A stretch of DNA of 64,000 nucleotides from positions 14,069 through 78,068 of the forward strand of contig JBFRWD010000075.1 in NCBI GenBank assembly GCA_051439425.1, read 5' to 3'. The notes beneath the pieces are model-generated. The model had not been told where the DNA came from, ran no database searches, and saw only the letters and a program-made list of their open reading frames with translations. Within the stretch, counting starts at the first letter, position 1. Every line of letters starts with the position of its first letter. Shown here one piece after another: positions 1,883-19,045 of the stretch. The DNA is from Synechococcus sp. (GTDB taxonomy: Bacteria > Cyanobacteriota > Cyanobacteriia > Thermostichales > PCC-7336). Made by a program: the position numbers and the translations under genes.

Positions 1883-1974
1883 TCCGCAGCCTGGATCTTG
1901 TGTCACTATCGCCTGTAACTCTTGCCCAATAACTGTTCTGGATGATTTAGAGGAATTAAGAGACAAGGGGGATT

Positions 1975-2583
1975 ATGACGAGAAGGTGGCTGGTGAACAT
2001 TTGCCATTGGACATACAACTCGCTGTGCGGACTGAGTTTGGGGGTCGGGATATTTGCCATATCCCCAGCTTCATGGGCTCATGGTGTTAACGTCACTCAC
2101 GATGCCGGTGAAGCCGTGAGAGTGCAGGCGTCGTATGACTCCGGCGAGCCGATGGCTGCGGCGCAGGTATCGGTATTTGCTCCGGGCAATGTGGAGACGC
2201 CGTGGATAACCGGCACCACCGATCCGACTGGAAATTTCGCCTTCGTGCCCGATTTCACACAAACGGGTCGCTGGGAAGTGCAAGTGCGCTTGGCCGGTCA
2301 CGGGGATATCGTGTACGTGCCAGTCGAAGACGTCTCCACTGCCGCAGAACTATCGAGCAATGCATCTCAGAACACAGAAGAATCAGAATCATTAGCGCCT
2401 CCAGCGACTCGATCTCCGTCGCGAGCCGTTGCATCCCCTCCGCGATCGCCTGTAGGTCTATCCATTGGTCAAAAGCTTGTGATGGGAGCCGTGTTTTCCT
2501 GGGGATGTGTGGGCACCGCACTGTATGTCAAGCGGAAGACTATCAAGCCGAGTAACCCTGCCAAACAAGGGGGCCTTCTCTAA
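1975..2583 (+). CDS. Ni/Co ECF transporter accessory subunit (NikL/CbiL-like; signal peptide, beta-sandwich, C-terminal TM)
   Basis: Signal peptide ending WA-HG, YDSGEPMAAAQVSVFAP...GTTDPTGNFAF motif and C-terminal TM helix. Its stop overlaps the ATG of the next gene. Confidence 0.7.
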   Translation: MTRRWLVNICHWTYNSLCGLSLGVGIFAISPASWAHGVNVTHDAGEAVRVQASYDSGEPMAAAQVSVFAPGNVETPWITGTTDPTGNFAFVPDFTQTGRWEVQVRLAGHGDIVYVPVEDVSTAAELSSNASQNTEESESLAPPATRSPSRAVASPPRSPVGLSIGQKLVMGAVFSWGCVGTALYVKRKTIKPSNPAKQGGLL

Positions 2584-3317
2584 TGCATATCCCCGATGGT
2601 TTCTTGCCGACGCCACTGTGGTTGGGAGGCTACGCCATTTCAGGGACCGCTCTGTGGTTTTCCCTGCGTCAGATCGATCGCCTACCCAATCCGCAAGCAG
2701 GCGTGCCGAAAGCTTCTCTACTAACCGCAGCCTTTTTTGTAGCCTCCTGGATTCATATCCCGGTTCCGGTTCCAGGCGCTAGCGTCCATCTAATGCTGAA
2801 TGGATTGTTGGGGGTATTGTTGGGGCCATTTGCCTTTCCGGCTATTGCCATCGGATTGTTTTTTCAAGCGGTTCTGTTTCAACACGGTGGACTCTCCACG
2901 TTAGGGGTTAATGCTGCAGTGTTGGGAATTCCGGCCATGCTGGCATCGCAGCTCTATCGATTGAGATGGCGGTTGTCTTCAACTCATAATTCTTCAACTC
3001 ATAATTCTTCAACGCATAAATCTTTAACGCATAAGTCTTCAACACATCTGGATTCAAATAAATGGATGTCGGAGCGGTGGGTGACCGGTGCCTTTGCTGC
3101 AGTGGCTGGCGCGGGAGGTTTGTTGCTATCGGCAGTCGTGTTTTGCGCGCTGTTAATCGCTGTCATTCCAGCCTCGTTTGACGTACAGGCCGAGCGAATA
3201 GCGATCGCCTCCTTGACTGTGGCTCACCTGCCGCTAGCCCTGCTGGAAGGCGCCATGACGGCAGCTGTTGTGCTGTTTTTGGAGCGGGTCAAGCCTACTT
3301 TGCTGCAACAGCTATGA
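2583..3317 (+). CDS. nikM: Ni/Co ECF transporter substrate component (NikM/CbiM)
   Basis: N-terminus MHIPDGFL (NikM-type rather than MHIMEG), plus SVHLMLNGLLGVLLG and FQHGGLSTLGVN. Confidence 0.85.
   Translation: MHIPDGFLPTPLWLGGYAISGTALWFSLRQIDRLPNPQAGVPKASLLTAAFFVASWIHIPVPVPGASVHLMLNGLLGVLLGPFAFPAIAIGLFFQAVLFQHGGLSTLGVNAAVLGIPAMLASQLYRLRWRLSSTHNSSTHNSSTHKSLTHKSSTHLDSNKWMSERWVTGAFAAVAGAGGLLLSAVVFCALLIAVIPASFDVQAERIAIASLTVAHLPLALLEGAMTAAVVLFLERVKPTLLQQL
2976..3050 (+). repeat. In-frame 15-bp tandem repeat x5 (SSTHN-like) inside nikM
   Basis: tcttcaactcataat x2, tcttcaacgcataaa, tctttaacgcataag, tcttcaacacatctg. Confidence 0.9.
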
Positions 3318-3355
3318 GCCGGGTTTAACTAGACTGGCACTAACAGGGGTCTGGA

Positions 3356-4138
3356 ATGAAATCAATTGCGATCGATACCTACAGTCATTTGGACTCCCCC
3401 CTGCACCGGTGGGATGCGCGCGCCAAGTTGATTGGGTTGTTTGCCATCATGCTGGCCTTTGCCAGTATTCAGCAGTTGGTGTTGTTGCCGCTGCTGATGC
3501 TGCTCAGCGGTTTGGCGTATTGGCTGTCAAAGTTGCCCTATCACTTCTGGCGCGATCGCTTGCGCTGGCCGGGTCGCTTGCTATTTATGCTGGCGCTGGT
3601 GTTGCCATTTGCAGGGGGACAGGTGGAGTGGCTGCGATTGGGGCCGATTGCTATTTACCAAGATGGGGTAATGACCTTATTGCAGGTAACGACTCGCGCC
3701 ATCTCGATTCTGACAGTAGGGTTAGTGTTGTTCGGAACCACTCCATTCCCCACTCTGATCTCTGCGACGCGATCGTTGGGGCTTCCCGCCATCTTGGCTG
3801 ACATGGGGTTGCTCACCTACCGCTACCTCTACGACTTGGGCAGCACCCTCGACACCATGCAAACCGCCCTCCGTTTGAGAGGACTGCGGATAACTCGACT
3901 GCAGCGGTCTCAGGTTCCAGTGGTGGCATCGCTAATCGGGTCTTTATTAGTGCGCAGTTACGACCAATCCGAGCGCATTTACTGTGCAATGCGGCTGCGG
4001 GGGTATGGCGATATTCCTCAACCCCAAACTCGCCTCTGGCCCTCACGCCGTCACCTATGGGGAACGGGAATAGCGCTAGCGATCGCGCTCGGCTTGCTAT
4101 CCGCTGAGGGGGGGTGGAGCCTGCTGCCGCTGACGTGA
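3356..4138 (+). CDS. cbiQ: Ni/Co ECF transporter T component (NikQ/CbiQ)
   Basis: SPLHRWDARAKL...YRYL...ALRLRG...LLVRSYDQSERIYCAMRLRGY. Confidence 0.9.
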   Translation: MKSIAIDTYSHLDSPLHRWDARAKLIGLFAIMLAFASIQQLVLLPLLMLLSGLAYWLSKLPYHFWRDRLRWPGRLLFMLALVLPFAGGQVEWLRLGPIAIYQDGVMTLLQVTTRAISILTVGLVLFGTTPFPTLISATRSLGLPAILADMGLLTYRYLYDLGSTLDTMQTALRLRGLRITRLQRSQVPVVASLIGSLLVRSYDQSERIYCAMRLRGYGDIPQPQTRLWPSRRHLWGTGIALAIALGLLSAEGGWSLLPLT

Positions 4139-7078: not shown

Positions 7079-8104
7079 GTGACTGTCGATTCTCCTGCCT
7101 CCAATTCTCTCAACTCGGTACAACTAGTTAGTGTGGCGACGGCTGTTCCTGAGACAGTTTTGACGAATGACGAGCTGGGACAGATTGTCGATACCTCCGA
7201 CGAATGGATTCGCCCCCGCACCGGAATTCGCGAACGTCGCATCTTAGAGCCGAGTCGCACTTTGGTCGATCTTGGTGCGGAAGCCGGTCGGTTGGCGATC
7301 GCGCAGGCTGGCCTTGAGCCGATGGACATTGACCTAATTGTGTTGGCGACATCTACCAGTAGCGAACGATTTGGGGCGGCTGGTGCCATTCAAGGACAGT
7401 TGGGAGCCAAGCGAGCGGTGGCGTTTGACCTAACGGCGGCTTGCACTGGGTTTGTGTATGCGGTGGCGACGGCGGCGCAGTTTTTGCAGACGGGGGTGTA
7501 TCGGCGGGCATTGATTGTGGCGGCAGATGTGTTGTCGCGCACAGTGGATTGGAGCGATCGCCGTACCTGCGTTCTATTTGGTGATGGTGCCGGAGCGGTT
7601 GTATTGGAAACTGGTTCGACTCAGGGATTGCTGGGGATGGAGTTGCGTACGGATGGTACGGGCAGCGATTTGCTGACGTTAGAGAATAAGTCGGAATCGG
7701 TGGAGCTGACTGACTCCATTTCTGTAGGGCAGTATCGCAATCAGTTCATTGCCATGAATGGGCGCGAGGTTTACAAGTTTGCGGTGCGAGAAGTGCCGGA
7801 GGTCGTGGAGAAGACGCTGTTTCGGGCGGGTCTGGATGCGGCGGATGTGGATGGATATTTCATGCATCAGGCGAATCAGCGGATTTTGGATGCGATCGCC
7901 AAACGCCTGAAAGTAGACAATGACCGGTTTGCGAGCGTTCTCGATCGCTACGGCAATACCTCAGCGGCGTCGATTCCGTTGGCGCTGGCGGATTGGGTGG
8001 AGTCGGGCAAGTTGAAGACCGGACAGACGGCGCTGGCGGCAGGGTTTGGTGCAGGACTGACTTGGGGGGCGATCGCTTTTAAGTGGGGGCGATTGGACGG
8101 TTAG
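7079..8104 (+). CDS. fabH: Beta-ketoacyl-ACP synthase III
   Basis: DTSDEWI..RTGIRERR, AACTGF, FGDGAGA, HQAN, GNTSAASIP. Confidence 0.97.
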   Translation: MTVDSPASNSLNSVQLVSVATAVPETVLTNDELGQIVDTSDEWIRPRTGIRERRILEPSRTLVDLGAEAGRLAIAQAGLEPMDIDLIVLATSTSSERFGAAGAIQGQLGAKRAVAFDLTAACTGFVYAVATAAQFLQTGVYRRALIVAADVLSRTVDWSDRRTCVLFGDGAGAVVLETGSTQGLLGMELRTDGTGSDLLTLENKSESVELTDSISVGQYRNQFIAMNGREVYKFAVREVPEVVEKTLFRAGLDAADVDGYFMHQANQRILDAIAKRLKVDNDRFASVLDRYGNTSAASIPLALADWVESGKLKTGQTALAAGFGAGLTWGAIAFKWGRLDG

Positions 8105-10866
8105 TCGCTCTTCTGATTTTCTTGGATGTTTTCGGAGAGAGCTTTTTGGCGATCGTGAATGCGTTTAGCTATGTCTTGAGCAACCTCGGTGATCTCTTGC
8201 GCTTGGCGTGGGTTTTCTCCTTGAAAGAGTTTGATTCCTATAATTAGGGGCTCTAGTTTGGACGCTATTGGGCAGTTGGTGAGAACTCGTACCGTTTCTA
8301 GGGTGTTACCTCGGACAACAGCTTCGACGAAGAAACTCGTAATTGGTCCAATGAAATTAGATGCGTTTTTGAGAGTCAATAGTTTTGCAAAGGCTGTAAA
8401 CGCCTCGTCGTAGAGCTCCAAATGCTCGTGCAGTAACTGTCCTAGTCTTACCCAAAGCTCTGCGTTATCTGGTTTGAGCTCGATAGCTTTGCGATAAGCT
8501 TCCTTTGCCTCACCATAGTTCTTCAAACATTCATGCAATAACTTTCCTCGAAATAGCCATAGTATCCATTCATAATTTGGAGGAACGAGTTCGATGGCTT
8601 TGCGGTAGGCTTCTTCAGCCTCGTCGTAGCGTTCCAAACGCACGTGTAGTAGTTTCCCAAAGTGAGCCCAAAAGTTCCATGCTTGACTGGACTTGATAGA
8701 GATTCCTTTACAATAAGCTGCTTCAGCTTCGTCGAACCGCTCCAAATGCTCGTACAGTAACCCTAGTTGTCCCCAAGCCCATTCGTAATCGGGTTCGAGC
8801 TCGATAGTCTTGCGATAAGTCTGTTCAGCCTCGTCGTAACGCTCCAAACACTCGTGCAGTAACTGTCCAAGTTGTCCCAAAGCCCATGCGTCATCGGGTT
8901 TGAGCTCGATGGCCTTGCGATAAGTCTGCTCAGCCTCGTCGTAACGCTCCAAGCGCTCGTGCAGTAATTGTCCGAGTTGTGCCCAATCCCATGCGTCATC
9001 GGGTTCGAGCTCGATGGCTTTGCGATAAGCCTGCTCAGCCTCATCGTAACGCTCCAAACGCTCGTGTAGTAATTGTCCTAGTTTTGCCCAATCCCATGCG
9101 TCATCGGGTTTGAGCTCGATGGCTTTGCGATAAGCCTGCTCAGCTTCGTTGTAACGCTCCAAACGCTCGTGCAGTAATTGCCCTAGTTTTGCCCAATCCC
9201 ATGCGTCATCGGGTTTGAGCTCGGTAGCCTTGCGATAAGCCTGCTCAGCCTCGTCGTAACGCTCCAAACGCTCGTGCAGTAACTGTCCTAGTTTTGCCCA
9301 AGCCCATTCGTAATCGGATTTGAGCTCTATGGCCTTGCGATAAGCTTCCTCAGCCTCGTCGTAGCGCTCCAAATGCTCGTGCAGTAATTGCCCTAGTTGT
9401 GTCCATGCTTTATGGTCATGTGGATTTATCTCGATGCGCTTGCGAAGCTCTTTTTCAGACTCTATCGGCGATAACGAGACAGCAGATTCTGAGGTGTCTG
9501 TAAGTGCGTTTGAAAGCTGTTTCAACTCTTCAGGAAGATCGAAAGCGGTAAAAAAGTCTTCTGGAGTTGCCTTTAATATTTCCGTCTTGAGTGATTTGGT
9601 GATTCCTTTATGATTGACAATTTCGCCATATGCACAATACAAATCTTGCCGGAAATCTTGATTGATCCCACCAATTTCCTTCGCCAATTTTGTAGTTGCA
9701 AGTACAAGATCTTGCTCTTGATAATATTGCACCATAAAATCGACAGCCGCTCTTACCCGACTGGCGGCTGTGCTGCGGCGTCGCATCAAATAGTAAATGT
9801 TGTAAAGCCTTTCAGTTGCCTGATAGTACTTCCTACGTCCTTCTTTTTCAACAACTTCTACTGCCCCTCGATTTACCAAACGATTCAATACAGAGCTCGC
9901 TTTGTTAATGTCTAACCGTGCTTTTTGTGAAACTTCTTTTGCTGTCGCAGGATCCCAGATCTCCAGCAATGCAACAAAAATCTTCCGTTCCTGGGCTGGC
10001 AGACTTTCAAGTTGGCCTTTAAAATAATCCGTGTGCTCATCAATTAATCGAGTCAGATTAGTCATTAAGTCTTGAAATGACAATTGCGCAGCAAACTCCG
10101 CCAAAATTCTAACGAGCCGAGGATTTCCTCCAGTCAATATTCTGACGGGATGTAATTGCTGTTCTGAAATTTCTTGTCCTGTGATTTTGTTCCAAAGCGG
10201 TTGACAATCTGCTGTACTTAAAGGTTTTAATTCAATCTGCTCAAATAGCTCGAACCAAGCTTTATCGATGTTTGAAATCTCATCAAAACTGGCTGTTGCC
10301 GTTCCCAATAGCATTGCACGCGGCTCGTTCATTAACGTATGGCGCAACGTCCAATCATCATCGCTACCAAGCTGTTCCTCCAACAACATGTTCAGATTTT
10401 CAACAACCAGTAGTAGCTTCCCCCCCCGTTCATCCACAAAATCCATTAGCTGCGCTAACGCCCTTGCCGCCAGCCGCTGGTCGTCCATCTCCGATTCCAG
10501 CTCGTCGTATACCAATTGCCACCGACCGTCTTTCGTTTGTTCCCCTAAATAAAACAACGCTTCCCGCCAAAATTCCCCCGGACTTGTAACCGAATAGACC
10601 TCTTCACCAAACACCAGCGGATACCAATCCGCATCCAACTCTTTGCTCCGACGAATCTCCGCAGCTACTCGTCGCACCAGCGTTGTCTTTCCAGTCCCTC
10701 GCGCCCCAATCAACAACACGTGCTGGTTGCTTTCCGCCTCCACGTTGTCCCGGATCCGTTCTATCGTCAGGTCGAGATACTCATTGCGCACCACAAACTG
10801 TTTGATGACCTCGTCATCGCTGCTAAACCCCGGATTGTATTTGGGAGCTGACAGAACCACCATCAC
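8101..10866 (-). CDS. STAND/AAA-type ATPase with winged-helix and C-terminal TPR array
   Basis: Walker A GARGTGKTT, Walker B-like LLLVVEN, GGNPR (GxP), wHTH (ATAKEVSQKARLDINKASSVLNRL) and about ten 35-aa TPRs. Confidence 0.8.
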   Translation of the reverse strand: MMVVLSAPKYNPGFSSDDEVIKQFVVRNEYLDLTIERIRDNVEAESNQHVLLIGARGTGKTTLVRRVAAEIRRSKELDADWYPLVFGEEVYSVTSPGEFWREALFYLGEQTKDGRWQLVYDELESEMDDQRLAARALAQLMDFVDERGGKLLLVVENLNMLLEEQLGSDDDWTLRHTLMNEPRAMLLGTATASFDEISNIDKAWFELFEQIELKPLSTADCQPLWNKITGQEISEQQLHPVRILTGGNPRLVRILAEFAAQLSFQDLMTNLTRLIDEHTDYFKGQLESLPAQERKIFVALLEIWDPATAKEVSQKARLDINKASSVLNRLVNRGAVEVVEKEGRRKYYQATERLYNIYYLMRRRSTAASRVRAAVDFMVQYYQEQDLVLATTKLAKEIGGINQDFRQDLYCAYGEIVNHKGITKSLKTEILKATPEDFFTAFDLPEELKQLSNALTDTSESAVSLSPIESEKELRKRIEINPHDHKAWTQLGQLLHEHLERYDEAEEAYRKAIELKSDYEWAWAKLGQLLHERLERYDEAEQAYRKATELKPDDAWDWAKLGQLLHERLERYNEAEQAYRKAIELKPDDAWDWAKLGQLLHERLERYDEAEQAYRKAIELEPDDAWDWAQLGQLLHERLERYDEAEQTYRKAIELKPDDAWALGQLGQLLHECLERYDEAEQTYRKTIELEPDYEWAWGQLGLLYEHLERFDEAEAAYCKGISIKSSQAWNFWAHFGKLLHVRLERYDEAEEAYRKAIELVPPNYEWILWLFRGKLLHECLKNYGEAKEAYRKAIELKPDNAELWVRLGQLLHEHLELYDEAFTAFAKLLTLKNASNFIGPITSFFVEAVVRGNTLETVRVLTNCPIASKLEPLIIGIKLFQGENPRQAQEITEVAQDIAKRIHDRQKALSENIQENQKSD
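8730..9400 (-). repeat. Near-identical 105-bp tandem repeats encoding TPRs
   Basis: gtaacgctccaaacgctcgtgcagtaa-type block recurs at about 8836, 8941, 9046, 9151, 9256 and 9361. Confidence 0.9.
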
Positions 10867-12107
10867 CCATCCCCCCGATCGCTAGCAGACACGTAGCTAA
10901 AACCGTAATGGTTTTTCCACCAATCCCTCAATAAATTCGATTCAAATTCATAACAGGCATCCCGTTGAATCAAATACCCGTCGTGCTTCAAGATCCCCAA
11001 AATCTCTATCAGCGAACTGTCTTCTCCAACCTCTCCGTAGTCTTGGCAAATCATCTGTGCTGCTGCTGGAGTTAACTGCCCAACAACTGCCGCTTCAGTC
11101 AATAGCTCTAACGTCAGTGGATGTTGTTTCACACTCAACACCATCTTGATGCGCTCTTCTAAGTGACTCAGATCGGCATGTCCCCTTACTCCCAACATGT
11201 CTTGCTGGTAAATACGCTCGGCTAGATCGAGAGAAATCGTTTCAAGGCTATTCTTCCTGCAATGTTGGTAGAGGTGGCTAAAGAACATCTGGACGTGGTA
11301 CGGAATGCAAACCCCTAGTAACGCCGCCATCCGCTGCTGCACATCATCTTCAAACGTGAGCTGAACCTCATTTGCTAAGGCATCCCAACAGGCACAAGCA
11401 ACGTTTACCGACCATGCCTTCAAATCAAATGGTGTCAGATGATTGATCGTGGCACTTAACCCCGCCTTTCGTAACAGCGGCTCTAACCCAATCGACCCCG
11501 TTACCACAAACCTCAACGTCCCCTGGTGTTGCAAGCAATTCCTTCTCAGCCAAGACATCCATAGCTCGGCTTCCTCCTTACGCTCATTGGTCATGCTGTA
11601 GTCCGAGCCTTTCAGCATCCGACTCACTAGAATCGGCACTTCATCGCAGAAAATCGCCACTGGTTGTTCCGAACTGGCCAATATATCCAAGAGACGATTG
11701 CCCTTACTCTGCCAATCACCTGGTGAGAGTCCCCCACGTAGTTTGATCTTCAACTCGCTGACTTGGATACTCCCTACACTTTGAGCTAGGCCATCCAATG
11801 TATTGGCAAACAAGTCCTGAGTTTTGATCCACAAGGGTTTATGCTCGCGTGTTGCTACGCTCAACTCGGCGATCGCGTCTGCAGCGTCCTTTGCATCTTG
11901 CAAGTCGATATGCAAACAGATGTATCGATCGGAAATCCGCCGCGACACCTCGTGCATCAAACTTGTTTTTCCCATCCGCCGCTGTGCCACCAACAGCAGA
12001 TGGTCGCCGCTATCCAACGACTCTTCAAATAGCTCTAGCTCTGCTTCTCGCCCAAAGAACCGATTGCCCGTTACGTAGTTGCCGACCGTACGCTTGAGCT
12101 TGTCCAC
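10863..12107 (-). CDS. STAND/archaeal-type ATP-binding protein (probable GTG start at 12107)
   Basis: GNYVTGNRFFGREAEL, degenerate Walker A AQRRMGKTS, Walker B IFCDE, VVTGSIGL, C-terminal LLRDWW. Overlaps the downstream gene by 4 bp. Confidence 0.75.
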   Translation of the reverse strand: MDKLKRTVGNYVTGNRFFGREAELELFEESLDSGDHLLLVAQRRMGKTSLMHEVSRRISDRYICLHIDLQDAKDAADAIAELSVATREHKPLWIKTQDLFANTLDGLAQSVGSIQVSELKIKLRGGLSPGDWQSKGNRLLDILASSEQPVAIFCDEVPILVSRMLKGSDYSMTNERKEEAELWMSWLRRNCLQHQGTLRFVVTGSIGLEPLLRKAGLSATINHLTPFDLKAWSVNVACACWDALANEVQLTFEDDVQQRMAALLGVCIPYHVQMFFSHLYQHCRKNSLETISLDLAERIYQQDMLGVRGHADLSHLEERIKMVLSVKQHPLTLELLTEAAVVGQLTPAAAQMICQDYGEVGEDSSLIEILGILKHDGYLIQRDACYEFESNLLRDWWKNHYGFSYVSASDRGDG

Positions 12108-12123
12108 AGCCAAATGCCTCTTT

Positions 12124-12199
12124 TCAACAATTCCATTGCCAACAAATTTGTTGGCAAGGTTAATATATCCAACAATTCTGTTGCCAACAAATCCGTTGG
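12124..12199. promoter_or_regulatory. 15-bp-periodic array of palindromic CAACAA-N4-GTTG sites upstream of the ATPase pair
   Basis: CAACAA starts at 12125, 12140, 12170 and 12185. ttgccaacaaatttgttggcaa (12136-12157) is a perfect palindrome. Confidence 0.65.
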
Positions 12200-12291
12200 G
12201 GATATTCAGAAAGAGAAAAGCCCCCATTGAGAACTGCTCAATAGAGGCCAAGGTTATTGAATTACCTCTGTCTTCAGGGATCTGAAGGTGT

Positions 12292-13473
12292 CTATCCCTT
12301 CACGCACACCACCTGTTTGAGGGTGGCGACAACTTCTACCAAGTCGGTTTGGCTGGCCATCACCTCCTCAATTGGTTTGTAAGCACCGGGAATTTCATCC
12401 AGAATCCCTTTGTCTTTGCGGCATTCGACACCGGCGGTTTGCTCGATTAGGTCATCGAGTGTGTAGGCTTTCTTTGCTTTGGTGCGGGACATGCGGCGTC
12501 CGGCTCCGTGGCTGCAAGAACAGTAACTGGCGTGGTTACCTTTGCCTTTAACGATGTAGGACTTGGCGCCCATCGAGCCGGGGATGATGCCGTAGTCGGT
12601 GGTGCGGGCGCGGACGGCTCCCTTGCGGGTGACGTATACGTCTTCGCCGAAGTGGTTTTCTTGCTCGGCGTAGTTGTGGTGGCAGTTGACGGCCAGCAGG
12701 GGCTTGGTGGGTTTGCCTCCGGCAAGATGCTTCTCAACGATGTGCTTGAAGCGGGCCATCATGACGTCGCGGTTGAAGCGGGCGTAGTCTTGCGCCCATT
12801 GCAGGTCGTGCCAGTAGGCAGCGAACTCGGGGGTGCCTTTGACGAAGTGGGCCAGGTCGGGATCGGGTAGGGTTTCGTCAGCTAGTTGAGCGAGCCCTTT
12901 TGCCGTTTTGATGTGGTTTTGGGCCAGTTTGTTGCCGATGTTGCGGGAGCCAGAGTGCAGCATCAGCCAGACGGTGTTGTCGGTGTCGAGGCAGAGCTCG
13001 ATGAAGTGGTTGCCGCCGCCAAGGGAGCCCATTTGGTGGAGAGATTTGGATTCTAGTTTTTGGACACCTTTGTGCAGGTTTTTGAACGAGCGCCAGCCGT
13101 TCCAGTTGTAGGCGTCTTTTTCGACGTCCTTGTTTTGGTTGAATCCGGTGGGGATAGCGGCTTCGATGTCTAGGCGAATTTTCTTGAGTTTGCCCTCTAG
13201 CATGTCGCCCGTAAATGGGGTTTTGATGGCGCACATCCCGCAGCCAATATCCACGCCGACAGCAGCGGGGATGATGGAATCTTTGGTGGCGATGACGGAA
13301 CCGACTAGGGCTCCTTTGCCCAGGTGGACGTCGGGCATGAGGGCGACGTGTTTGTAGACGAAGGGGAGGTTGGCGACGTTTTTGGCCATCCGGTATTCGT
13401 CGGAGCTAAGCTCGTGGTTTGCCCAAGAGTAAACGGGCTTATCGGTAGGTAGATTTAGATCTTTCTGTGACAT
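12292..13473 (-). CDS. rtcB: RNA ligase RtcB
   Basis: MPDVHLGKG, VGVDIGCGM, GSLGGGNHFIEL, LHSGSR, CHHNY, RKGA, PGSMG, SHGAGR, DEIPGAYK. ATG at 13473 (MSQKDL). Confidence 0.97.
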   Translation of the reverse strand: MSQKDLNLPTDKPVYSWANHELSSDEYRMAKNVANLPFVYKHVALMPDVHLGKGALVGSVIATKDSIIPAAVGVDIGCGMCAIKTPFTGDMLEGKLKKIRLDIEAAIPTGFNQNKDVEKDAYNWNGWRSFKNLHKGVQKLESKSLHQMGSLGGGNHFIELCLDTDNTVWLMLHSGSRNIGNKLAQNHIKTAKGLAQLADETLPDPDLAHFVKGTPEFAAYWHDLQWAQDYARFNRDVMMARFKHIVEKHLAGGKPTKPLLAVNCHHNYAEQENHFGEDVYVTRKGAVRARTTDYGIIPGSMGAKSYIVKGKGNHASYCSCSHGAGRRMSRTKAKKAYTLDDLIEQTAGVECRKDKGILDEIPGAYKPIEEVMASQTDLVEVVATLKQVVCVKG

Positions 13474-13602
13474 GGTTATTTCTCTCTTTCTTCTTCTTGG
13501 TCGGTGTTTTGGGTCGAATTTGTAGCGAGCAGCTACGACAATTGATGGAATTTGTTGCTGGTGGCAGGCAAGTAAGAATTGCTTTTTGGCAAAAGTGTAG
13601 AT

Positions 13603-13633
13603 AAGCCTCATGCTCACATAGCAGAGGAGGCTT
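13603..13633 (-). terminator. Stem-loop between rsr and rtcB (terminator/attenuator or processing site)
   Basis: Minus strand AAGCCTC-CTC-TGCT-ATGTG-AGCA-T-GAGGCTT, 11 nt after the rsr stop. Confidence 0.45.
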
Positions 13634-13644
13634 GAGGAGCATTC

Positions 13645-15246
13645 CTACAAATCTCCGTTGGCAATCATCTGAATGGCCCGAGGGGCACCGGGGTCAAACC
13701 CAGCGAAATCCCACGACAACGGATCTTGAGGATCGACCAAAGAGATGCGGTACGGAGCCAGCGAAACGTAAACCGCTTTCGCATCGGGATTCACCTTACG
13801 GCGATACTCTGCCAACGCCTGTGCGGGATGTCGCTTGCCTGCCCACGACTCGCAATCTGTCCAGAAGCAAAACACATCCGTCCAGACCCGCTTGGCGATC
13901 GCCCAGTCATACGCCACCGACGCATCCGTCCCCCCAAACGTTTGTCGCGTCGTCTTCTGCAACGCAGACGAGAAACAATCCCGAGCCGTAATCCCCAAGT
14001 CTTTGAAGGTAGTCGAGAATCCGCGAATAACATAGTTTTTCTCGGCTTTCGCCGTTACCAACGCCATCGTTGTCGCAATCTCGCTACAAGACAGATTCAT
14101 AGACCCGCCAGAGTAACAAGACATAGACCCCGAAACATCGACCGCATGCAAGAACGTCTTGCCCGTAGGCTTCACGGTCTCAAACGAACGCTCCAGAGCT
14201 TTCTCTAAAATGTCGCAAATGCGAGGAATCGGTTCCCACGTCTTCTTGCTGCGACCGGATCGACCCCCAGATCGATAAGTCTTCAGCGCCTTCAACACGT
14301 CAATCGGATGAATCCGTCCCTTGCGCAAGCGATCGCGACTGGTCAACACCTTCGCCACCCGCCTCAAGTTCTTAGACTTGTGAACTTGCAACACCCCAAT
14401 TTCAGTCAAAGACCCCAAGTTGCGCAACAGCGCCCCAATCGGCATGTCTTCAAACAGTAACTGCCAAGCGTTGGCATCCATCTTGGCGATCGGAGCCACC
14501 ATCTCGTGGGTCAATCGCCCCTCGGAGATCGCCATGCAGGTACTGTCAGGATTGCGCTTCAACCACTCGTACCACCACACCTGAGCAATCGGTCCATTGG
14601 GCACCCGATCGGGCAATGTCTCCCACCCATTTACCACCCAGTCGTAGAGAGCCTGGTGCCCTTCTGTCTCAGGCTTAACGTGGAATAAACGCAAGGCATC
14701 GCGATTGCTAAACCCATGCCGTTGTCGGTACTTCAACAACTGATAAGTCAACCACTTCACATCAGGATTCGACAACCACCCCTTACCGCATTCCCGCACC
14801 ACCTTACCCAAACCACGCACGGACTTGGTGTAGTTCAACCACTCGTAAAAATGACTGCCGGTGCGCACCACCTTAGGGAAAATCTCCATAAATGCCTGTT
14901 TTGCAGCATGGGAATCCCCCATAGACAGCAACACCAAGGCGTAGATGGGGGCGCTGTTGTTGATGGAACGACCGTCGCTAGCCGAGACAATCTCGCTCGC
15001 GGTGCGGGCTGGGTCTTTGTCCACACAAGCCAAGACCGTATCGGTAAAGTCACCGGTTAAATCGTGTTTGTCGGCGTAATAGGTGCTTTGCGCCGTGCCG
15101 ATCAGCAAGCAGCGGGTCAGCATGGTCCAGGGGCCGGGGTCAAACATGTAACCGCCAGACCGACCACGTACCATCTCCTGTTCACGTCCGGGAATCGGTT
15201 GATGTTGAGGAGTTTTAGTAGTCGAGGTGAAAAATTTATATGACAT
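13645..15246 (-). CDS. rsr: Ro60 ortholog (TROVE + vWA domain protein, Rsr)
   Basis: MVRGRSGGYMF, RCLLIGT..STYY, VVRTGSHF, LLKYRQRHGFS.RDALRL.H, MPIGALLRNLG, RIHP, MIDAS AVDVSGSM, GGTD, TDCE, GFD. ATG at 15246 after a purine-rich RBS. Confidence 0.93.
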   Translation of the reverse strand: MSYKFFTSTTKTPQHQPIPGREQEMVRGRSGGYMFDPGPWTMLTRCLLIGTAQSTYYADKHDLTGDFTDTVLACVDKDPARTASEIVSASDGRSINNSAPIYALVLLSMGDSHAAKQAFMEIFPKVVRTGSHFYEWLNYTKSVRGLGKVVRECGKGWLSNPDVKWLTYQLLKYRQRHGFSNRDALRLFHVKPETEGHQALYDWVVNGWETLPDRVPNGPIAQVWWYEWLKRNPDSTCMAISEGRLTHEMVAPIAKMDANAWQLLFEDMPIGALLRNLGSLTEIGVLQVHKSKNLRRVAKVLTSRDRLRKGRIHPIDVLKALKTYRSGGRSGRSKKTWEPIPRICDILEKALERSFETVKPTGKTFLHAVDVSGSMSCYSGGSMNLSCSEIATTMALVTAKAEKNYVIRGFSTTFKDLGITARDCFSSALQKTTRQTFGGTDASVAYDWAIAKRVWTDVFCFWTDCESWAGKRHPAQALAEYRRKVNPDAKAVYVSLAPYRISLVDPQDPLSWDFAGFDPGAPRAIQMIANGDL

Positions 15247-15300
15247 CTTTTCTTCTCCGTCCCTGATGGGATAAACGAACGGTGTCCCCAAATGGGGAAG

Positions 15301-15425
15301 GGAGACGGACGGGAATCGAACCCGTATCTCGGCGGACAAAAGGGGGGATCGTTAACAGCGATAACCTTGAGTCCTTCAGCCCTTGCGGGCAATCAGTGCG
15401 CTCTACCGTTTGAGCTACCGACTCC
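15301..15425 (-). ncRNA. tRNA-shaped Y-like RNA, copy D
   Basis: (G)GAGUCGG-UAGCUCAAACGGUAGAGCG-[CACUGAUUGCCC-GCAA-GGGCUGAAGGACUCAAGGUUAUCG...CCUUUUGUCC...]-ACGGG-UUCGAUU-CCCGU-CCGUCUC-C. Confidence 0.8.
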
Positions 15426-15447
15426 ATATAGGTTTTGGGAAAAACAT

Positions 15448-15552
15448 TGGTGGACGGGAAGAGATTCGAACTCCTGACCGATAACCCTCGCTCGACGACC
15501 TATGAGGTAAAGAGTGAACGAGGGGTTGCTCTACCATTTGAGCTACCCGCCC
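15448..15552 (-). ncRNA. tRNA-shaped Y-like RNA, copy C (encoded ACCA end)
   Basis: GGGCGGG-UAGCUCAAAUGGUAGAGCA-[ACCCCUCGUUC-ACUCU-UU-ACCU-CAU-AGGU-C-GU-C-GAGCGAGGG-UUAUCGGUC]-AGGAG-UUCGAAU-CUCUU-CCCGUCC-ACCA. Confidence 0.88.
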
Positions 15553-15582
15553 ATATTGAGTTTTGAGAATGAGAGGGGATTT

Positions 15583-15687
15583 GTTCGCGAAGCGTCTCCG
15601 TCAGGAGATACCCCGCCTTCCAGCTACCGATAACCTTCATCCGGCGTCCCTTTCGGGTCAGTGGTGAATAAAGAGGAAGACTCGCCC
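15583..15687 (-). ncRNA. Y-like RNA copy B (Ro-stem module without canonical D/T arms; ends approximate)
   Basis: GUCUUCC-UCUUUAUUC-ACCAC-UGA-CCC-GAAA-GGG-ACGCC-GGAUGAAG-GUUAUCG-GUAGCU-GGAAGGC, then hairpin UCUCC-UGAC-GGAGA. Confidence 0.65.
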
Positions 15688-15697
15688 GTATTGAGGT

Positions 15698-15828
15698 TGT
15701 AGTGGAGGAGGACTCGAACCTCCAGATGACGCAGTTCCCTACGATAACCCTCACTCTTCGACCCAATGGGTAAGAAATTGAATAAGGTAACTCGACTGCC
15801 GCCTTTACCAATTTGGCCACCCACTACA
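15698..15828 (-). ncRNA. tRNA-shaped Y-like RNA, copy A
   Basis: (UG)UAGUGGG-UGGCCAAAUUGGUAAAGGCG-GCAGU-[...CCUUAUUC-AAUUUC-UU-ACCC-AUU-GGGU-C-GA-A-GAGUGAGG-GUUAUCG...]-ACUGC-GUCAUCU-GGAGG-UUCGAGU-CCUCC-UCCACUA-(CA). Confidence 0.85.
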
Positions 15829-16015
15829 GGTGTTTGACTTGATAGTGGTGCGATGAAGTGTGTTTGGCTTGCGCCGCCCGTCCCTCATCGACATCCCAAG
15901 ACTAAGAGCCACTTGCCCCCCTATTCGAATGCAGCTCAAAACCCGGCCAACGCAGACTGGATAAGAGATGGGAGTTAGGGGGGAGGTGTGAAGTTGGGGG
16001 GCCCCCCTAACTTTG

Positions 16016-19000
16016 TTAGTGGAATTGCTGTTGGGATATTGGAGACTGAGCGACTCGATCTTGCGGGCGGGCAAATCGGTGCTTGGTGCGATCGTAGATT
16101 TCGTAGCGATTGCGGCCGCCTGTTTTTGCTGCGTACATGGCGGCATCTGCGTCGCGCAAAATCTCGGCTGGCGAGTTATACCTCGGATTACCGAGCGCTA
16201 TGCCAATGCTGGTGCTGGTGGAAAGTTGGCGATCGCCAATCACGACGGGTTGCATCACTGCCGTGAGAATGCGCTCGGCGGTTTGCTGGATGCCGACAGT
16301 ACTCTCCAAGTCATCCAGCAAAATTGTAAACTCGTCTCCCCCCAACCGAGAGACTGTATCCCCCGTGCGTACGCACTGCTGCAAGCGCTGAGCAATGGTG
16401 CGCAACAGCCGGTCTCCTGCGGCGTGACCGAGGGTATCGTTCACCGATTTAAATCGATCCAGGTCGAGGAACAGAACGGCGTATTGTTCGCTGAGACGGC
16501 GTTTGCTCCGTTCGATCGCCTGTCCCAGCCGATCGTTAAAGAGCGATCGATTGGGCAATCCGGTTAAGGGATCGTGGAAGGCGTGGAACCGTAGCTCTTG
16601 CTCCATCACCTTGCGAGTTGTGATGTCTTCCACCGTGCCGACATAGTACAAAAGCTGACCGGAACTATCCTGCACAGCCCGCCAATTTTCACTCACCCAA
16701 AATGTGTTGCCGTCGCGGTGGCGCACCTCAGATTCGTAAGCTTCCACTGCAAAATCTGTTGCCAATTGCTGCAGCAATTGCTGGCGCTGTTGAGAGTCAA
16801 CGTAGAGCAGCTGGTGAACGTTTGCCACCGATGCCATCATTTGGGCTGGACTTTCGTAGCCGTACATGGCGGCCAGTGCAGGATTTGCCCCGATCAACTG
16901 CCCGTCTGGGGCGACTTGGAAGATTCCCTCTAGTGCTTGCTCGAAAATGCTGCGATATTTGGCTTCTGCTTGTTGCAGGGCGTCCTGGGCCTGCTGTCGC
17001 TCGGTGATGTCGTTGCCCACGTACAGTACGCACAACTCACCGGACAATTCAATCAAATTCGCTGACAGCAATAGAGTGCGGGTATTGCCAGAATGTTGCT
17101 TGAACTCCACCTCCAGATTGCGGACAACACCATCTGTTTTCAGCCGTCTAAAAATCTCCCTTCGGGTCAGATCGCGGTGCCACAAGCCCAATTCTTTAGC
17201 GGTGCGCCCGATCGCCGCCTCCCGCTCTAATTTGCAGATGCTGAGGAAGCTGTCGTTAACCTCCAACAATTTGCCGGAGCGTACTGCCACAATGGCCACC
17301 GGACTGGAGCTGGATTTAAAGGCGGCGGCGAACTTTTCTTCCGATTGTCGTAGGGCTATTTCCGCATGCTTGCGCTCGGTGGTATCGCGAGCGACTAACA
17401 GGGCTGTGGTGGCTCCAGCAGGTGAAATTCGTCCGGAAAAGCATCTCTTTTGCCCGTTAATCTCCAACTGGTATTCCAGATCGGTGGTTTCGTTGCGATC
17501 GATCGCGGCTTGAATCGCCGTCAAACAGCGATTGCTATCATCGTCACTAATCAGATGTTGGAGGTGAATGCGCAATAGCTCTTCGGAAGGGGAGATGGGA
17601 GAGGAGGGATCGCTGGAGGTGATGTGGGTGTAGCGACCGACGCGATCGAACATCAGAATCACTTCGGTCATGGCGGAGAACACCACCCGCATGTGTCGTT
17701 CGGCGGCTTCCAGAGTAGCGGTGCGCTGCTGTACCCGATGCTCTAGTTCTACGTTGGTGGTGGCGAGGCGATCGATCGTGCCGCGCAATTGTGTGGCCAG
17801 TCCTTTGACAGAGGTGGAGAGAATTTCAAGCTCCGAGATCGTGCTGTGGGGAACAGCTAAGTCCAAAGCATTTGGGCCACCGGCCGCCATTTTTCGCGCC
17901 ACCGAGCTGAGTTCGTGGATGGAGCGAGCCATCCACCGGGCCGTCGCATTGCCGAACACGATGGCTAGTAACAGGGCGACTAAATACAGTGCTAGGGTGT
18001 CCCGCATGCTGCGACTGAGAGTACCGATTAGATCGGAGCTGGGGATGGCCACGATCATGAGCCAATCCAATCCCAGATCTCCTTTCATGGAGTCAACCTG
18101 AACGTAATAGGTTTCTCCGGCTGGGTCGCGAACCAATCCTTGAAAGGCGTCAACGGCTGCGTAGCTGCCAAATTCGTTGAGGAGGTGTTGCTCCACCGCT
18201 TGCATGTAGCTGTTGCTGCTGTCCGATACTGTGAACGGAGTTGGGGTTTCGCCCTCCGCGATCTGAGGAAACGTGTCTGCTTGGGAGCTGGCGACCACCG
18301 AGCCGCTGCGCTCTAGGATGATGGCCTCGCCCCGCTCGCCAATTTGCAATTCAGTTAGGAAGTCATCCAGTTGCGACAGAGTGATGTCCACCGCCAGGAC
18401 CCCATCAAGTTGATTGTTGCTGTCGCGGATGGGGATAGTGGGGGTAACGCCTCGCACCGGCTGGGCCGCAAAGTAGTAGATCGGAGACCAGGTGGGGCCG
18501 TTACTTTCCCTGGCAGACTCGTACCATGGCCGGATTCGCGGATCGTAACTATCCGTTCTCAGAAGAGTTTCTGGCTCGCCGTTGCTATCTAACTGATAAA
18601 TTTCGCGGGTGGGGGCGATGTCGGATGTGACGCGGTAGGAGAGGGGCTCGTCTTCACTTTGAGTGACGAGTATAAACTGGCCGGATTCATCACCGTAGTA
18701 CATCGTACGGACAGATTCTTCTAACCGTACGACTTGATAGAAGTAGCGTTGTAGGTCCTCGAAATTACTGGGATCGATTTGGCCGGTGGAGATGGCCGCT
18801 TGCGTGATTTGCAAAAAGGTGTGGGGCTGCTTGGCAAAATCAATCAGGTGATGTTCGATATGTTCGGTTGCTTCGGAACTCAGCTCGAAGGCGAGCGATC
18901 GCACGGCTCGCTGGCCGTTATAGAACGATAGGGCACCGGTAAAACCAGTGACCAGGACGATTTGTAGCAGGAAGGGTGCTACCAGCGCTTGCTGGAGAGA

Positions 19001-19045
19001 GAGCCTGGACAACCTACGTTTGATGGGATGGTCGTTCGCCATCAT
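16016..19045 (-). CDS. Membrane-bound diguanylate cyclase (dCache-HAMP-PAS x3-GGDEF)
   Basis: Two TMs flanking a Cache domain (YDPRIRPWY), PAS/PAC repeats, HDPLTGLPNR, FLDLDRFK, RLGGDEF. Confidence 0.92.
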   Translation of the reverse strand: MMANDHPIKRRLSRLSLQQALVAPFLLQIVLVTGFTGALSFYNGQRAVRSLAFELSSEATEHIEHHLIDFAKQPHTFLQITQAAISTGQIDPSNFEDLQRYFYQVVRLEESVRTMYYGDESGQFILVTQSEDEPLSYRVTSDIAPTREIYQLDSNGEPETLLRTDSYDPRIRPWYESARESNGPTWSPIYYFAAQPVRGVTPTIPIRDSNNQLDGVLAVDITLSQLDDFLTELQIGERGEAIILERSGSVVASSQADTFPQIAEGETPTPFTVSDSSNSYMQAVEQHLLNEFGSYAAVDAFQGLVRDPAGETYYVQVDSMKGDLGLDWLMIVAIPSSDLIGTLSRSMRDTLALYLVALLLAIVFGNATARWMARSIHELSSVARKMAAGGPNALDLAVPHSTISELEILSTSVKGLATQLRGTIDRLATTNVELEHRVQQRTATLEAAERHMRVVFSAMTEVILMFDRVGRYTHITSSDPSSPISPSEELLRIHLQHLISDDDSNRCLTAIQAAIDRNETTDLEYQLEINGQKRCFSGRISPAGATTALLVARDTTERKHAEIALRQSEEKFAAAFKSSSSPVAIVAVRSGKLLEVNDSFLSICKLEREAAIGRTAKELGLWHRDLTRREIFRRLKTDGVVRNLEVEFKQHSGNTRTLLLSANLIELSGELCVLYVGNDITERQQAQDALQQAEAKYRSIFEQALEGIFQVAPDGQLIGANPALAAMYGYESPAQMMASVANVHQLLYVDSQQRQQLLQQLATDFAVEAYESEVRHRDGNTFWVSENWRAVQDSSGQLLYYVGTVEDITTRKVMEQELRFHAFHDPLTGLPNRSLFNDRLGQAIERSKRRLSEQYAVLFLDLDRFKSVNDTLGHAAGDRLLRTIAQRLQQCVRTGDTVSRLGGDEFTILLDDLESTVGIQQTAERILTAVMQPVVIGDRQLSTSTSIGIALGNPRYNSPAEILRDADAAMYAAKTGGRNRYEIYDRTKHRFARPQDRVAQSPISQQQFH

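Follow-up and report, generated by a model that had tools for sequence, protein, structure and literature searches.

What kind of RNA is encoded by the four short units that stand in tandem 5′ of rsr, the gene for an orthologue of the Ro60 protein, in Synechococcus sp.? This question was addressed for a stretch of 64,000 nt from contig JBFRWD010000075.1 (in the following "the window", i.e. the whole stretch that was analysed). An initial annotation of the window had described the units as tRNA-shaped Y-like RNAs heading an operon of rsr and the RNA ligase gene rtcB. Our comparative analysis indicates that the units very probably form a tandem array of four Y RNAs, i.e. predicted ligands of Rsr, which represent a cyanobacterial branch of the YrlA RNAs with normal tRNA connectivity.

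The four tandem units were recovered on the minus strand 5′ of rsr, between 15300 and 15827, and all of them carry GGUUAUCG, as had been described; the separate acceptor stem, D arm and T arm that had been assigned to three of them were found in units 1, 3 and 4, together with U8. Wherever a detail of the initial observation could be checked, it proved correct. The units and one insert are located as follows:

15698-15827, minus strand: unit 1 (type A), with acceptor, D arm, closed Ro-type hairpin and T arm; GGUUAUCG at 15742-15749
15567-15687, minus strand: unit 2, without D arm, keeping the Ro-type hairpin; GGUUAUCG at 15628-15635
15584-15609, minus strand: structured insert of 26 nt in the T loop of unit 2, replacing U55, placed by alignment with uninterrupted homologues
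15448-15552, minus strand: unit 3 (short type A without V hairpin), with a 7-bp acceptor; GGUUAUCG at 15479-15486
15300-15425, minus strand: unit 4 (type B), with the partner of the upper stem 3′ of GGUUAUCG (15359-15366) and U as the bulged base; CCA not encoded

The string GGTTATCG occurs five times in the window, four times on the minus strand at 15359, 15479, 15628 and 15742; the shuffle expectation was 1.38 and none of 100 shuffled sequences reached five copies. For the scoring of the units a covariance model (R1) was built from 33 type A units, and the stability of the folds was expressed as the z value of the minimum free energy (MFE). Unit 1 has the acceptor GUAGUGG/CCACUAC and the T arm GGAGG-UUCGAGU-CCUCC, carries the exact motif GUCGAAG, does not encode CCA and reached 83.5 bits with R1 (MFE z of −2.5). 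In unit 3 the acceptor GGGCGGG/CCCGUCC is followed by ACCA, so that a G3:U70 pair, A73 (15451) and an encoded CCA (15448-15450) are present; it reached 88.6 bits, and its MFE z of −3.5 was accompanied by none of 200 shuffled sequences being equally stable. The acceptor of unit 4 (GGAGUCGG/CCGUCUCC) contains one U-U mismatch, with an R1 score of 54.8 bits and an MFE z of −1.9. Unit 2 was not detected by R1. Its acceptor is degenerate (six of seven pairs), its T stem is split, its T loop is interrupted and its MFE z is +0.1; it could be aligned with intact homologues from the loci L020 and L002, which keep the ACCA end that unit 2 has lost (locus numbers of this type denote sources among the cyanobacterial loci described below). 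Two units exceeded the gathering score of the Rfam tRNA model, namely unit 3 (15451-15552, 42.9 bits) and unit 4 (15301-15424, 39.3 bits). At the place of the anticodon arm these matches contain inserts of 44 nt and 67 nt, respectively, instead of the 5-bp anticodon stem and 7-nt loop that directly follow position 26 in a decoding tRNA, and ARAGORN called no tRNA and no transfer-messenger RNA (tmRNA) in the 64-kb window.

It is at the place of the anticodon arm that the Ro60-type stem stands in units 1, 3 and 4. The lower helix (UU-NCCC / GGGN-C-GA) comprises 4 bp with one bulged C and is capped by a loop of 3-5 nt. On the 3′ strand the order is G-N-C-G-A-A-G, then the strand of the upper helix, then GGUUAUCG; in unit 1 the upper helix is formed by CCUUAUUC paired with GAGUGAGG, and a few unpaired bases lie below it on the 5′ side. 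Thus a conserved stem, a single bulged C, unpaired bases opposite to it and the GNCGAAN0-1G strand are found together, as expected for a Ro60-binding helix: GNCGAAN0-1G is the Rsr-binding strand motif of YrlA (Chen et al. 2014, PMC4201824), and the vertebrate Ro60 site has a bulged C and unpaired bases opposite (PMC4726728). The versions of the motif in the window are GUCGAAG (unit 1), GACGCCG (unit 2), GUCGUCG (unit 3) and GCUGAAG (unit 4). Two alternative wirings of the upper helix were distinguished. In type A (units 1 and 3) the partner strand lies upstream and the Ro-type stem is one closed hairpin, while in type B (unit 4) only some 7 nt separate the D arm from the lower hairpin, and the partner (CCCUUAAUC-like) follows 3′ of a UUAUCG hairpin. 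Unit 2 stands for a third form without D arm. In many units GGUUAUCG is followed on its 3′ side by a small hairpin with a 7-nt loop, a GAGGUC-like linker and the T arm. The idea that V-hairpin loops serve as decoys for particular anticodons was rejected, as the loop triplets varied (UCU in five, GUC in four, GUU in four and UCC in three cases, besides others) and gave no clear signal.

The same architecture was found in other cyanobacteria. With the Rsr protein as query 39 cyanobacterial loci were retrieved. Of 33 loci examined, 27 had GGTTATC within a distance of 1.5 kb on the 5′ side of rsr, and nearly every copy lay in a tRNA frame with a fully complementary yet different acceptor stem. R1 gave 101 matches in 40 sources, of which 90 (in 33 sources) were at least 98 nt long and the other 11 were tRNA-sized; GGUUAUC is exact in 68 of the 90 units. 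In the MAFFT alignment of the 33 type A units 91.0% of the cells were paired, compared with 42-55% when the partners were slid, and 25 of 36 pairs had changed on both sides. For type B (22 sequences) 85.5% were paired, with double changes in 22 of 37 pairs. The lower stem (helix 4) of type A also covaries, with double changes in four of its six pairs. Acceptor, D arm, T arm, lower stem and the core of the upper stem were recovered independently by RNAalifold. The units possess a tRNA-like D arm, T arm and acceptor stem together with nucleotides for tertiary contacts: U8, G10, A14, the D-loop G, G53, U54, C56, A58 and C61 were invariant in 33 of 33 type A units according to our own mapping of the columns. 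A metagenome scan with Rsr yielded 11 loci, mostly from the same lineages, with zero new acceptor types.

Two observations on individual loci are added here. The close relative L020, which shares 91% nucleotide identity over rsr, has five units, and its unit at 3405-3537 is missing from the window between units 2 and 3 (window 15553-15700); arrays appear to gain and lose units quickly. The record of L023 is labelled as a metagenome-assembled genome of Sphingobacterium, its rsr is 73% identical to that of the window and its Y units match the clade of the window, so the contig is probably cyanobacterial and mis-binned.

The units are encoded beside a Ro60 orthologue and on the same strand, as Y RNAs are, and this linkage extends beyond the window. 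In the genome from which the window comes the top R1 matches were two rsr units (88.6 and 83.5 bits), a third rsr unit reached 54.8 bits, and the remaining matches were ordinary tRNAs with at most 57 bits. A sample of the phylum comprising 151 genomes was searched with R1 at a threshold of E ≤ 1e-11, and 15 genomes had matches. In the class of the window all 13 genomes with a strong vWA_Ro60 match carried R1 matches on the same contig, and these genomes were exactly the R1-positive set of that class. In the other classes 2 of the 17 vWA_Ro60 matches were also accompanied by R1 matches, and in the whole sample no R1 match was obtained in a genome without a vWA_Ro60 match. The covariance model and the scan of rsr neighbourhoods that the initial annotation had proposed as checks have thus returned strong covariation and linkage to rsr. 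Its view of the units as a polycistronic, diversified set of tRNA-shaped RNAs of the Ro60-ligand type is supported by the recurrence of the architecture 5′ of rsr and by compensatory changes in every helix.

On this basis the following course may be envisaged. The array would be transcribed together with rsr, and the units would be released in the manner of tRNAs, through cleavage by RNase P on the 5′ side and trimming on the 3′ side, with CCA encoded in some of them. Rsr would dock on the Y stem, and the tRNA-like body could act as a handle for a tRNA-binding partner. Around the predicted cleavage site, U stands at position −1 in 50 of 86 units, and G occupies +1 in 48 of 86.

Several points weigh against the assignment as Y RNAs. 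Unit 2 looks partly decayed. The exact motif GNCGAAN0-1G is present in only 26 of 90 units (77 of 90 in a relaxed form), and in the window it is confined to unit 1. We know of no Ro60 protein shown to bind a loop-closed lower stem that extends only 4 bp beyond the bulge. A consensus scan found no sigma-70-like promoter in the region 12000-16300. The Rfam model of YrlA (RF02553) reached 20.7 bits in the window against a cut-off of 69 and gave no match in 16 cyanobacterial loci. Finally, the shuffle statistics, in which none of 500 shuffles reached the covariation score of type A and none of 500 that of type B, overstate independence because the sequences are related; the slid-partner control keeps this relatedness and is yet far lower.

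The relation to YrlA had to be considered with respect to both homology and topology. YrlA has been described as a circularly permuted tRNA with a closed acceptor stem (Wang et al. 2018, bioRxiv 10.1101/312249). Few cyanobacterial YrlAs were found by Chen et al. (2014, PMC4201824), some of them with a 'longer acceptor stem', and the acceptor stem is 'predicted to be much longer' in some cyanobacteria according to Wang et al. (2018). The second seed alignment of Chen et al. (YrlA-II) includes rows from Calothrix, Stanieria and Gloeocapsa that carry GGTTATCG. These rows start with GG(C/T)CGA...GAGGGTTATCG and continue through the T arm, then a spacer that may reach about 90 nt, and the D arm to an end of the form CCTT..TTC. 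The units of the window share the GGTTATCG block and the T arm with the seed alignment of these authors; judged by this likeness, they are relatives of YrlA and belong to a kind already known, for which cyanobacterial 'YrlA' candidates with the shared GGTTATCG were listed by Chen et al. (2014). YrlA and the window family have further in common that the genes lie beside rsr on the same strand, that a Ro60-type stem with a GNCGAAG-like strand is present and that a tRNA-like module including the V hairpin is attached. They differ in the order of the parts, since in YrlA the T arm lies 5′ of the D arm and the RNA ends in the Ro stem, whereas here the Ro stem is a closed one and the predicted ends fall within the acceptor stem; moreover, the window family shows the two alternative upper-helix wirings and encodes CCA in a subset.

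Could the units nevertheless be permuted RNAs as in the published description of YrlA? Each RNA would then run from the GNCGAAG strand of one unit through its T arm to the D arm of the next unit, and the long closed 'acceptor stem' would consist of the 3′ acceptor strand, the spacer and the 5′ acceptor strand of the next unit. The Calothrix, Stanieria and Gloeocapsa rows were aligned in this way by Chen et al. (2014), and the only Rfam YrlA match of the window (15399-15480) is in such a register, as is the entry for Lyngbya aestuarii BL J in their Table S1, which spans two units: positions 108660-108828 correspond to L030:3474-3642, a segment that begins within the unit at 3414-3549 and ends within the unit at 3583-3736. 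The strands of the Ro stem are highly conserved, so pairing between neighbouring units is possible. Over 44 adjacent unit pairs, however, an average of 7.55 of 8 positions of the 3′ acceptor strand paired with the 5′ strand of the same unit, compared with 5.09 of 8 for the 5′ strand of the next unit; the own strand was the better partner in 37 pairs, both were equal in six, and the own strand was worse in one pair, which is a poor match. Nine sources contain a single Y-type match, for which only the reading as a tRNA is possible, and in an array the first and last units would be left partnerless. The lower stem forms locally, as a hairpin with a loop of 3-5 nt, and covaries in place, and CCA is found at the tRNA 3′ position in 25 of 86 units, often in front of an AT-rich spacer. 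We therefore regard the permuted structure as improbable here. Neither the acceptor test nor the encoded CCA pointed to the features that characterise YrlA, namely permuted order, closure of the acceptor stem and RNA ends within the Ro stem. From the preference for the own acceptor strand, the single-unit sources, the lower hairpin covarying in place and the encoded CCA we conclude that the units are, as far as can be read from their sequences, self-contained and wired as tRNAs, and that the published register crosses a gene boundary. In consequence, published coordinates that straddle two genes can be corrected.

When the array is read from mid-unit to mid-unit, the exact order of YrlA results, which fits a 'dimeric tRNA' origin of YrlA, a model that is attributed to Sim and Wolin in the account given by Wang et al. 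(2018); the cyanobacterial branch would supply the intermediate needed by this idea. In Mycobacterium smegmatis several Y RNAs are processed from one precursor, and RNase P cleaves YrlA, which also acquires CCA (Chen et al. 2014). The cut YrlA of M. smegmatis resembles the units in its 7-bp acceptor opened by RNase P and its CCA tail, i.e. in the same final topology, but it consists of two pieces: it is made in permuted form and cut into halves of 82 and 65 nt, whereas here each unit would give an uninterrupted chain, the two strands of the Ro stem being joined by a loop. The b7a-tRNA of Burroughs and Aravind (2016), as it is described by Wang et al. (2018), may overlap with these RNAs, which would bear on their novelty. 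A literature search on the topology of cyanobacterial Y RNAs returned, for YrlA and cyanobacteria, nothing beyond papers of the Wolin laboratory. An open, tRNA-style acceptor end appears to be kept by the whole cyanobacterial branch, in contrast to the sealed end assumed for bacterial Y RNAs, and this changes the set of enzymes that could act on them, which would include RNase P, the CCA-adding enzyme, aminoacyl-tRNA synthetases and EF-Tu.

Less credible still is the explanation that the units are real decoding tRNAs in which a removable insert or intron interrupts the anticodon arm, with RtcB possibly acting as the ligase. A hairpin with a 7-nt loop stands just before the variable region in 41 of 90 units (as in anticodon loops, CU is found at the start of the loop in 22 of these and AA at its end in 21), the linker 5′ of the T arm is often GAGGUC, real tRNA genes occur within the arrays of Chamaesiphon, and RtcB is a tRNA-splicing ligase in archaea and eukaryotes (Wang et al. 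2018). This hairpin has only 3-4 bp, however, and is missing from unit 3 and its homologues, and its loop triplets vary between orthologous units. No part of the unit is more conserved than the supposed insert, which bears the Ro60 motif, ARAGORN calls no tRNA in the window, rtcB is unlinked in other genomes, and no bacterial endonuclease for such a splice is known, as stated by Wang et al. (2018). That the units are decaying tRNA pseudogenes or repeats without function, placed beside rsr by chance, is strongly disfavoured and hardly believable, for although unit 2 is degenerate and close relatives differ in unit number (five in L020, four in the window), compensatory changes keep every helix intact across genera, co-occurrence with rsr is complete (13/13) in the class sample and GGUUAUC is exact in the 68 units mentioned above.

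Among the units interpreted as Y RNAs, unit 3 stands out by marks of alanine identity. It combines G1:C72, G2:C71, G3:U70, A73 and an encoded CCA on a 7-bp acceptor and a 5-bp T stem. The G3:U70 pair is the main determinant of alanine identity, and G3:U70, A73 and a 3′ CCA on an acceptor/T minihelix are together what would be expected of a substrate of alanyl-tRNA synthetase (AlaRS). The encoded CCA is unusual for this genome, in which none of the 37 tRNA genes called by ARAGORN is followed by CCA. All 37 continue with T or G, and in five of them the last acceptor bases and the discriminator merely happen to spell CCA. Among these 37 tRNAs and two tmRNA matches, G3:U70 is confined to tRNA-Ala(GGC) and the two tmRNA calls. 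The latter two have the same acceptor ends and lie on contigs C135 and C145 of the same genome, as would be given by a two-piece tmRNA or by an assembly duplicate.

In the family, G3:U70 was found in 13 of 18 units with A73 and CCA compared with 4 of 61 units without CCA; for this tally four gapped rows were dropped, and seven CCA units with another base at position 73, one of which has G3:U70, were kept apart. The remaining five A73-CCA units have G3:C70 or A3:U70. The 13 units with G3:U70 show five different acceptor sequences and come from several genera, but they include close paralogues, so that the independent events may number perhaps six or seven. The origin of unit 3 as a recent copy of tRNA-Ala was rejected, since the closest match to its acceptor, D and T parts is tRNA-Lys, with tRNA-Ala absent from the top five. 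Unit 3 resembles tmRNA and tRNA-Ala in the acceptor marks and differs from them in that it has no tag reading frame and a body unlike that of tRNA-Ala. As one joint reading, which is possible though rather doubtful, the subclass of the unit 3 type would be a substrate of AlaRS and the tandem tRNA-shaped units would be ancestral to the permuted YrlA. If this were true, an alanine-charged tRNA mimic bound to Ro60 would exist, which could bind EF-Tu or gain protection from exonucleases by charging, and the Ro60 particle of RNA surveillance would be tied to the translation machinery, as tmRNA is. The subclass with alanine identity in any case allows a direct bench test of aminoacylation of a Y RNA.

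The operon of rsr with rtcB in the initial annotation has to be assessed separately from the Y RNA array. The pairing is real in the window, where both genes lie on the same strand and were confirmed by Pfam, but it is not a property of the family. With the RtcB of the window as query in tblastn (E ≤ 1e-10) no match was obtained in any of the 39 rsr loci, of which 34 include 2 kb or more beyond rsr. Even in L020 synteny ends right at the rsr stop codon, and the neighbours of rsr elsewhere are unrelated housekeeping genes. RtcB itself is present in 13 of 13 rsr genomes of the class sample; the window genome has a single copy, and in the twelve others it is encoded on another contig or at distances of hundreds of kb to megabases from rsr. 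The adjacency of rsr and rtcB appears to be a recent, local accident of gene order; a terminator-like hairpin is seen only 3′ of rtcB, and co-transcription across the spacer of 172 nt is putative. Since rtcB stands beside rsr only in the window genome, a role in repair cannot be inferred from the linkage. The absence of rtcR and rtcA, noted initially for the window, was borne out at the level of the genome: neither PF06956 nor PF01137 matched in the 96%-complete assembly, while the E. coli controls matched, so that RtcR and RtcA, which an RtcR-controlled operon of rsr, Y RNA and rtcBA would have, were not found. The rsr-yrlBA-rtcBA operon of Salmonella (Hughes et al. 2020, PMC7790460) resembles the window in having rsr, Y RNA genes and rtcB on one strand. 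It differs in being controlled by RtcR and sigma-54, whereas in the window the Y RNAs precede rsr and the adjacency of rtcB is shared neither by the 34 other loci nor by the nearest relative.

A further element possibly related to the Y RNAs was found in the leader of rsr:

15255-15271, minus strand: rsr leader hairpin UCCC-AUCA-GGGA with a bulged C, then GGAG, overlapping the Shine-Dalgarno sequence at 15255-15258

A hairpin of the form NCCY-loop-RGGN with a bulged C or U and a following G stands directly 5′ of the start codon in 23 of 32 rsr leaders (14 of 32 with a stricter pattern), whereas among random 60-nt stretches from outside the arrays it was present in 6 of 5198. The version in Chamaesiphon is UUGCCC-UCAC-GGGC-U-GAAGGAGG. 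The leader hairpin resembles the lower stem of the Y units with the GNCGAAG strand and is flanked on its 3′ side by the Shine-Dalgarno sequence. U is bulged in 16 of the 23 leaders, whereas the Y units mostly have a bulged C. It is conceivable, and we would put it at a little below an even chance, that Rsr free of Y RNA binds this weaker look-alike and thereby blocks its own translation. A look-alike over the ribosome binding site of rsr would provide a simple, testable model for the limitation of Rsr synthesis. An Rfam match to the Glutamine riboswitch at 15243-15279 falls on the conserved leader hairpin and was rejected as weak (20.8 bits vs. a cut-off of 35).

The other features of the locus are the following:

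16016-19045: GGDEF/PAS sensor gene, whose end bounds the unit array on the side far from rsr
15839-15844, minus strand: putative, weak −10 box TATCAA, proposed from the letters alone, 11 nt 5′ of unit 1
15286-15297, minus strand: small hairpin CCCC-AUUU-GGGG directly 3′ of unit 4, also present in L002, L020 and L023
13645-15246, minus strand: rsr, Ro60 orthologue of 533 aa (Pfam vWA_Ro60 1.8e-38, TROVE 6.5e-16)
13473-13644, minus strand: rsr-rtcB spacer of 172 nt with one hairpin 3′ of the rsr stop codon (fold z of −0.72)
12292-13472, minus strand: rtcB, RNA ligase of about 393 aa (Pfam RtcB 2e-124)
12219-12249, minus strand: terminator-like hairpin with U-rich tail 3′ of rtcB, from a consensus scan

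The start codon of rsr was set to the ATG at 15246, replacing a TTG at 15339, and the product matched NCBIfam RNA-bind_Rsr with 317.7 bits, which is below the cut-off of 900. For rtcB the most likely start is the ATG at 13472, which gives a protein of about 393 aa like other cyanobacterial RtcB proteins and leaves the 172-nt spacer; in this spacer no Rfam match was obtained at E ≤ 1, and its fold is not stable. Six terminator-like sites were found in the scanned region compared with 4.7 expected, hence the site at 12219-12249 taken alone counts for little.

Some observations were made on the arrays of other cyanobacteria. Loci of the Nostocales type have a Y unit without D arm directly 3′ of rsr (L025:5647-5766, L007:5618-5735, L006:5654-5752 and L052:3618-3735), and its acceptor helix GGCGGG/CCCGCC may double as the intrinsic terminator of the operon, since a U run follows. 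In Chamaesiphon the arrays 5′ of rsr also contain ordinary tRNA genes, dispersed among the Y units (L012:3055-3680, L013:747-1440, L017:953-1541, L018:23-412, L022:3637-3909 and others). The tRNAs are Asp-GUC, Asn-GUU, Lys-UUU, Gln-UUG, Glu-UUC, Met/Ile-CAU and Ile-GAU, several of which we take to be classic targets of anticodon nucleases; this could be chance. In L013 an open frame of 539 aa without Pfam match (1883-3502, plus strand) lies between the Y RNA/tRNA array and rsr, and L017 has the same layout of array and rsr.

The insert in the T loop of unit 2 has homologues. Inserts of 23-26 nt replacing U55 occur in five different genes, located in the window (15584-15609, minus strand), in L030:3583-3736 and at about 3697-3812 in L014, 1569-1684 in L017 and 1434-1533 in L050. 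The hosts are two Y RNA units, a tRNA-Glu(UUC)-like gene in two rsr arrays of Chamaesiphon and one tRNA-Trp(CCA)-like gene, the latter in a cluster of at least 13 tRNAs away from rsr. In a wider search for T-loop inserts in 401 genomes 10 of the 12 positive genomes shared one conserved coding gene in a single genus, which was read as a chance match. In the fold of the U55 insert a 5-bp hairpin (UCUCC-UGNC-GGAGA) precedes one of 3 bp, which covaries between GGC-UUC-GCC and CGC-UUC-GCG; uninterrupted orthologues exist.

PADLOC returned nothing for rsr and rtcB and only weak partial matches for two downstream genes. These two overlapping genes (8101-12251, minus strand), located 3′ of rtcB, encode NTPases of the STAND type, one with AAA_16 and the other with AAA_16, a TrmB-like helix-turn-helix domain and many tetratricopeptide repeats.

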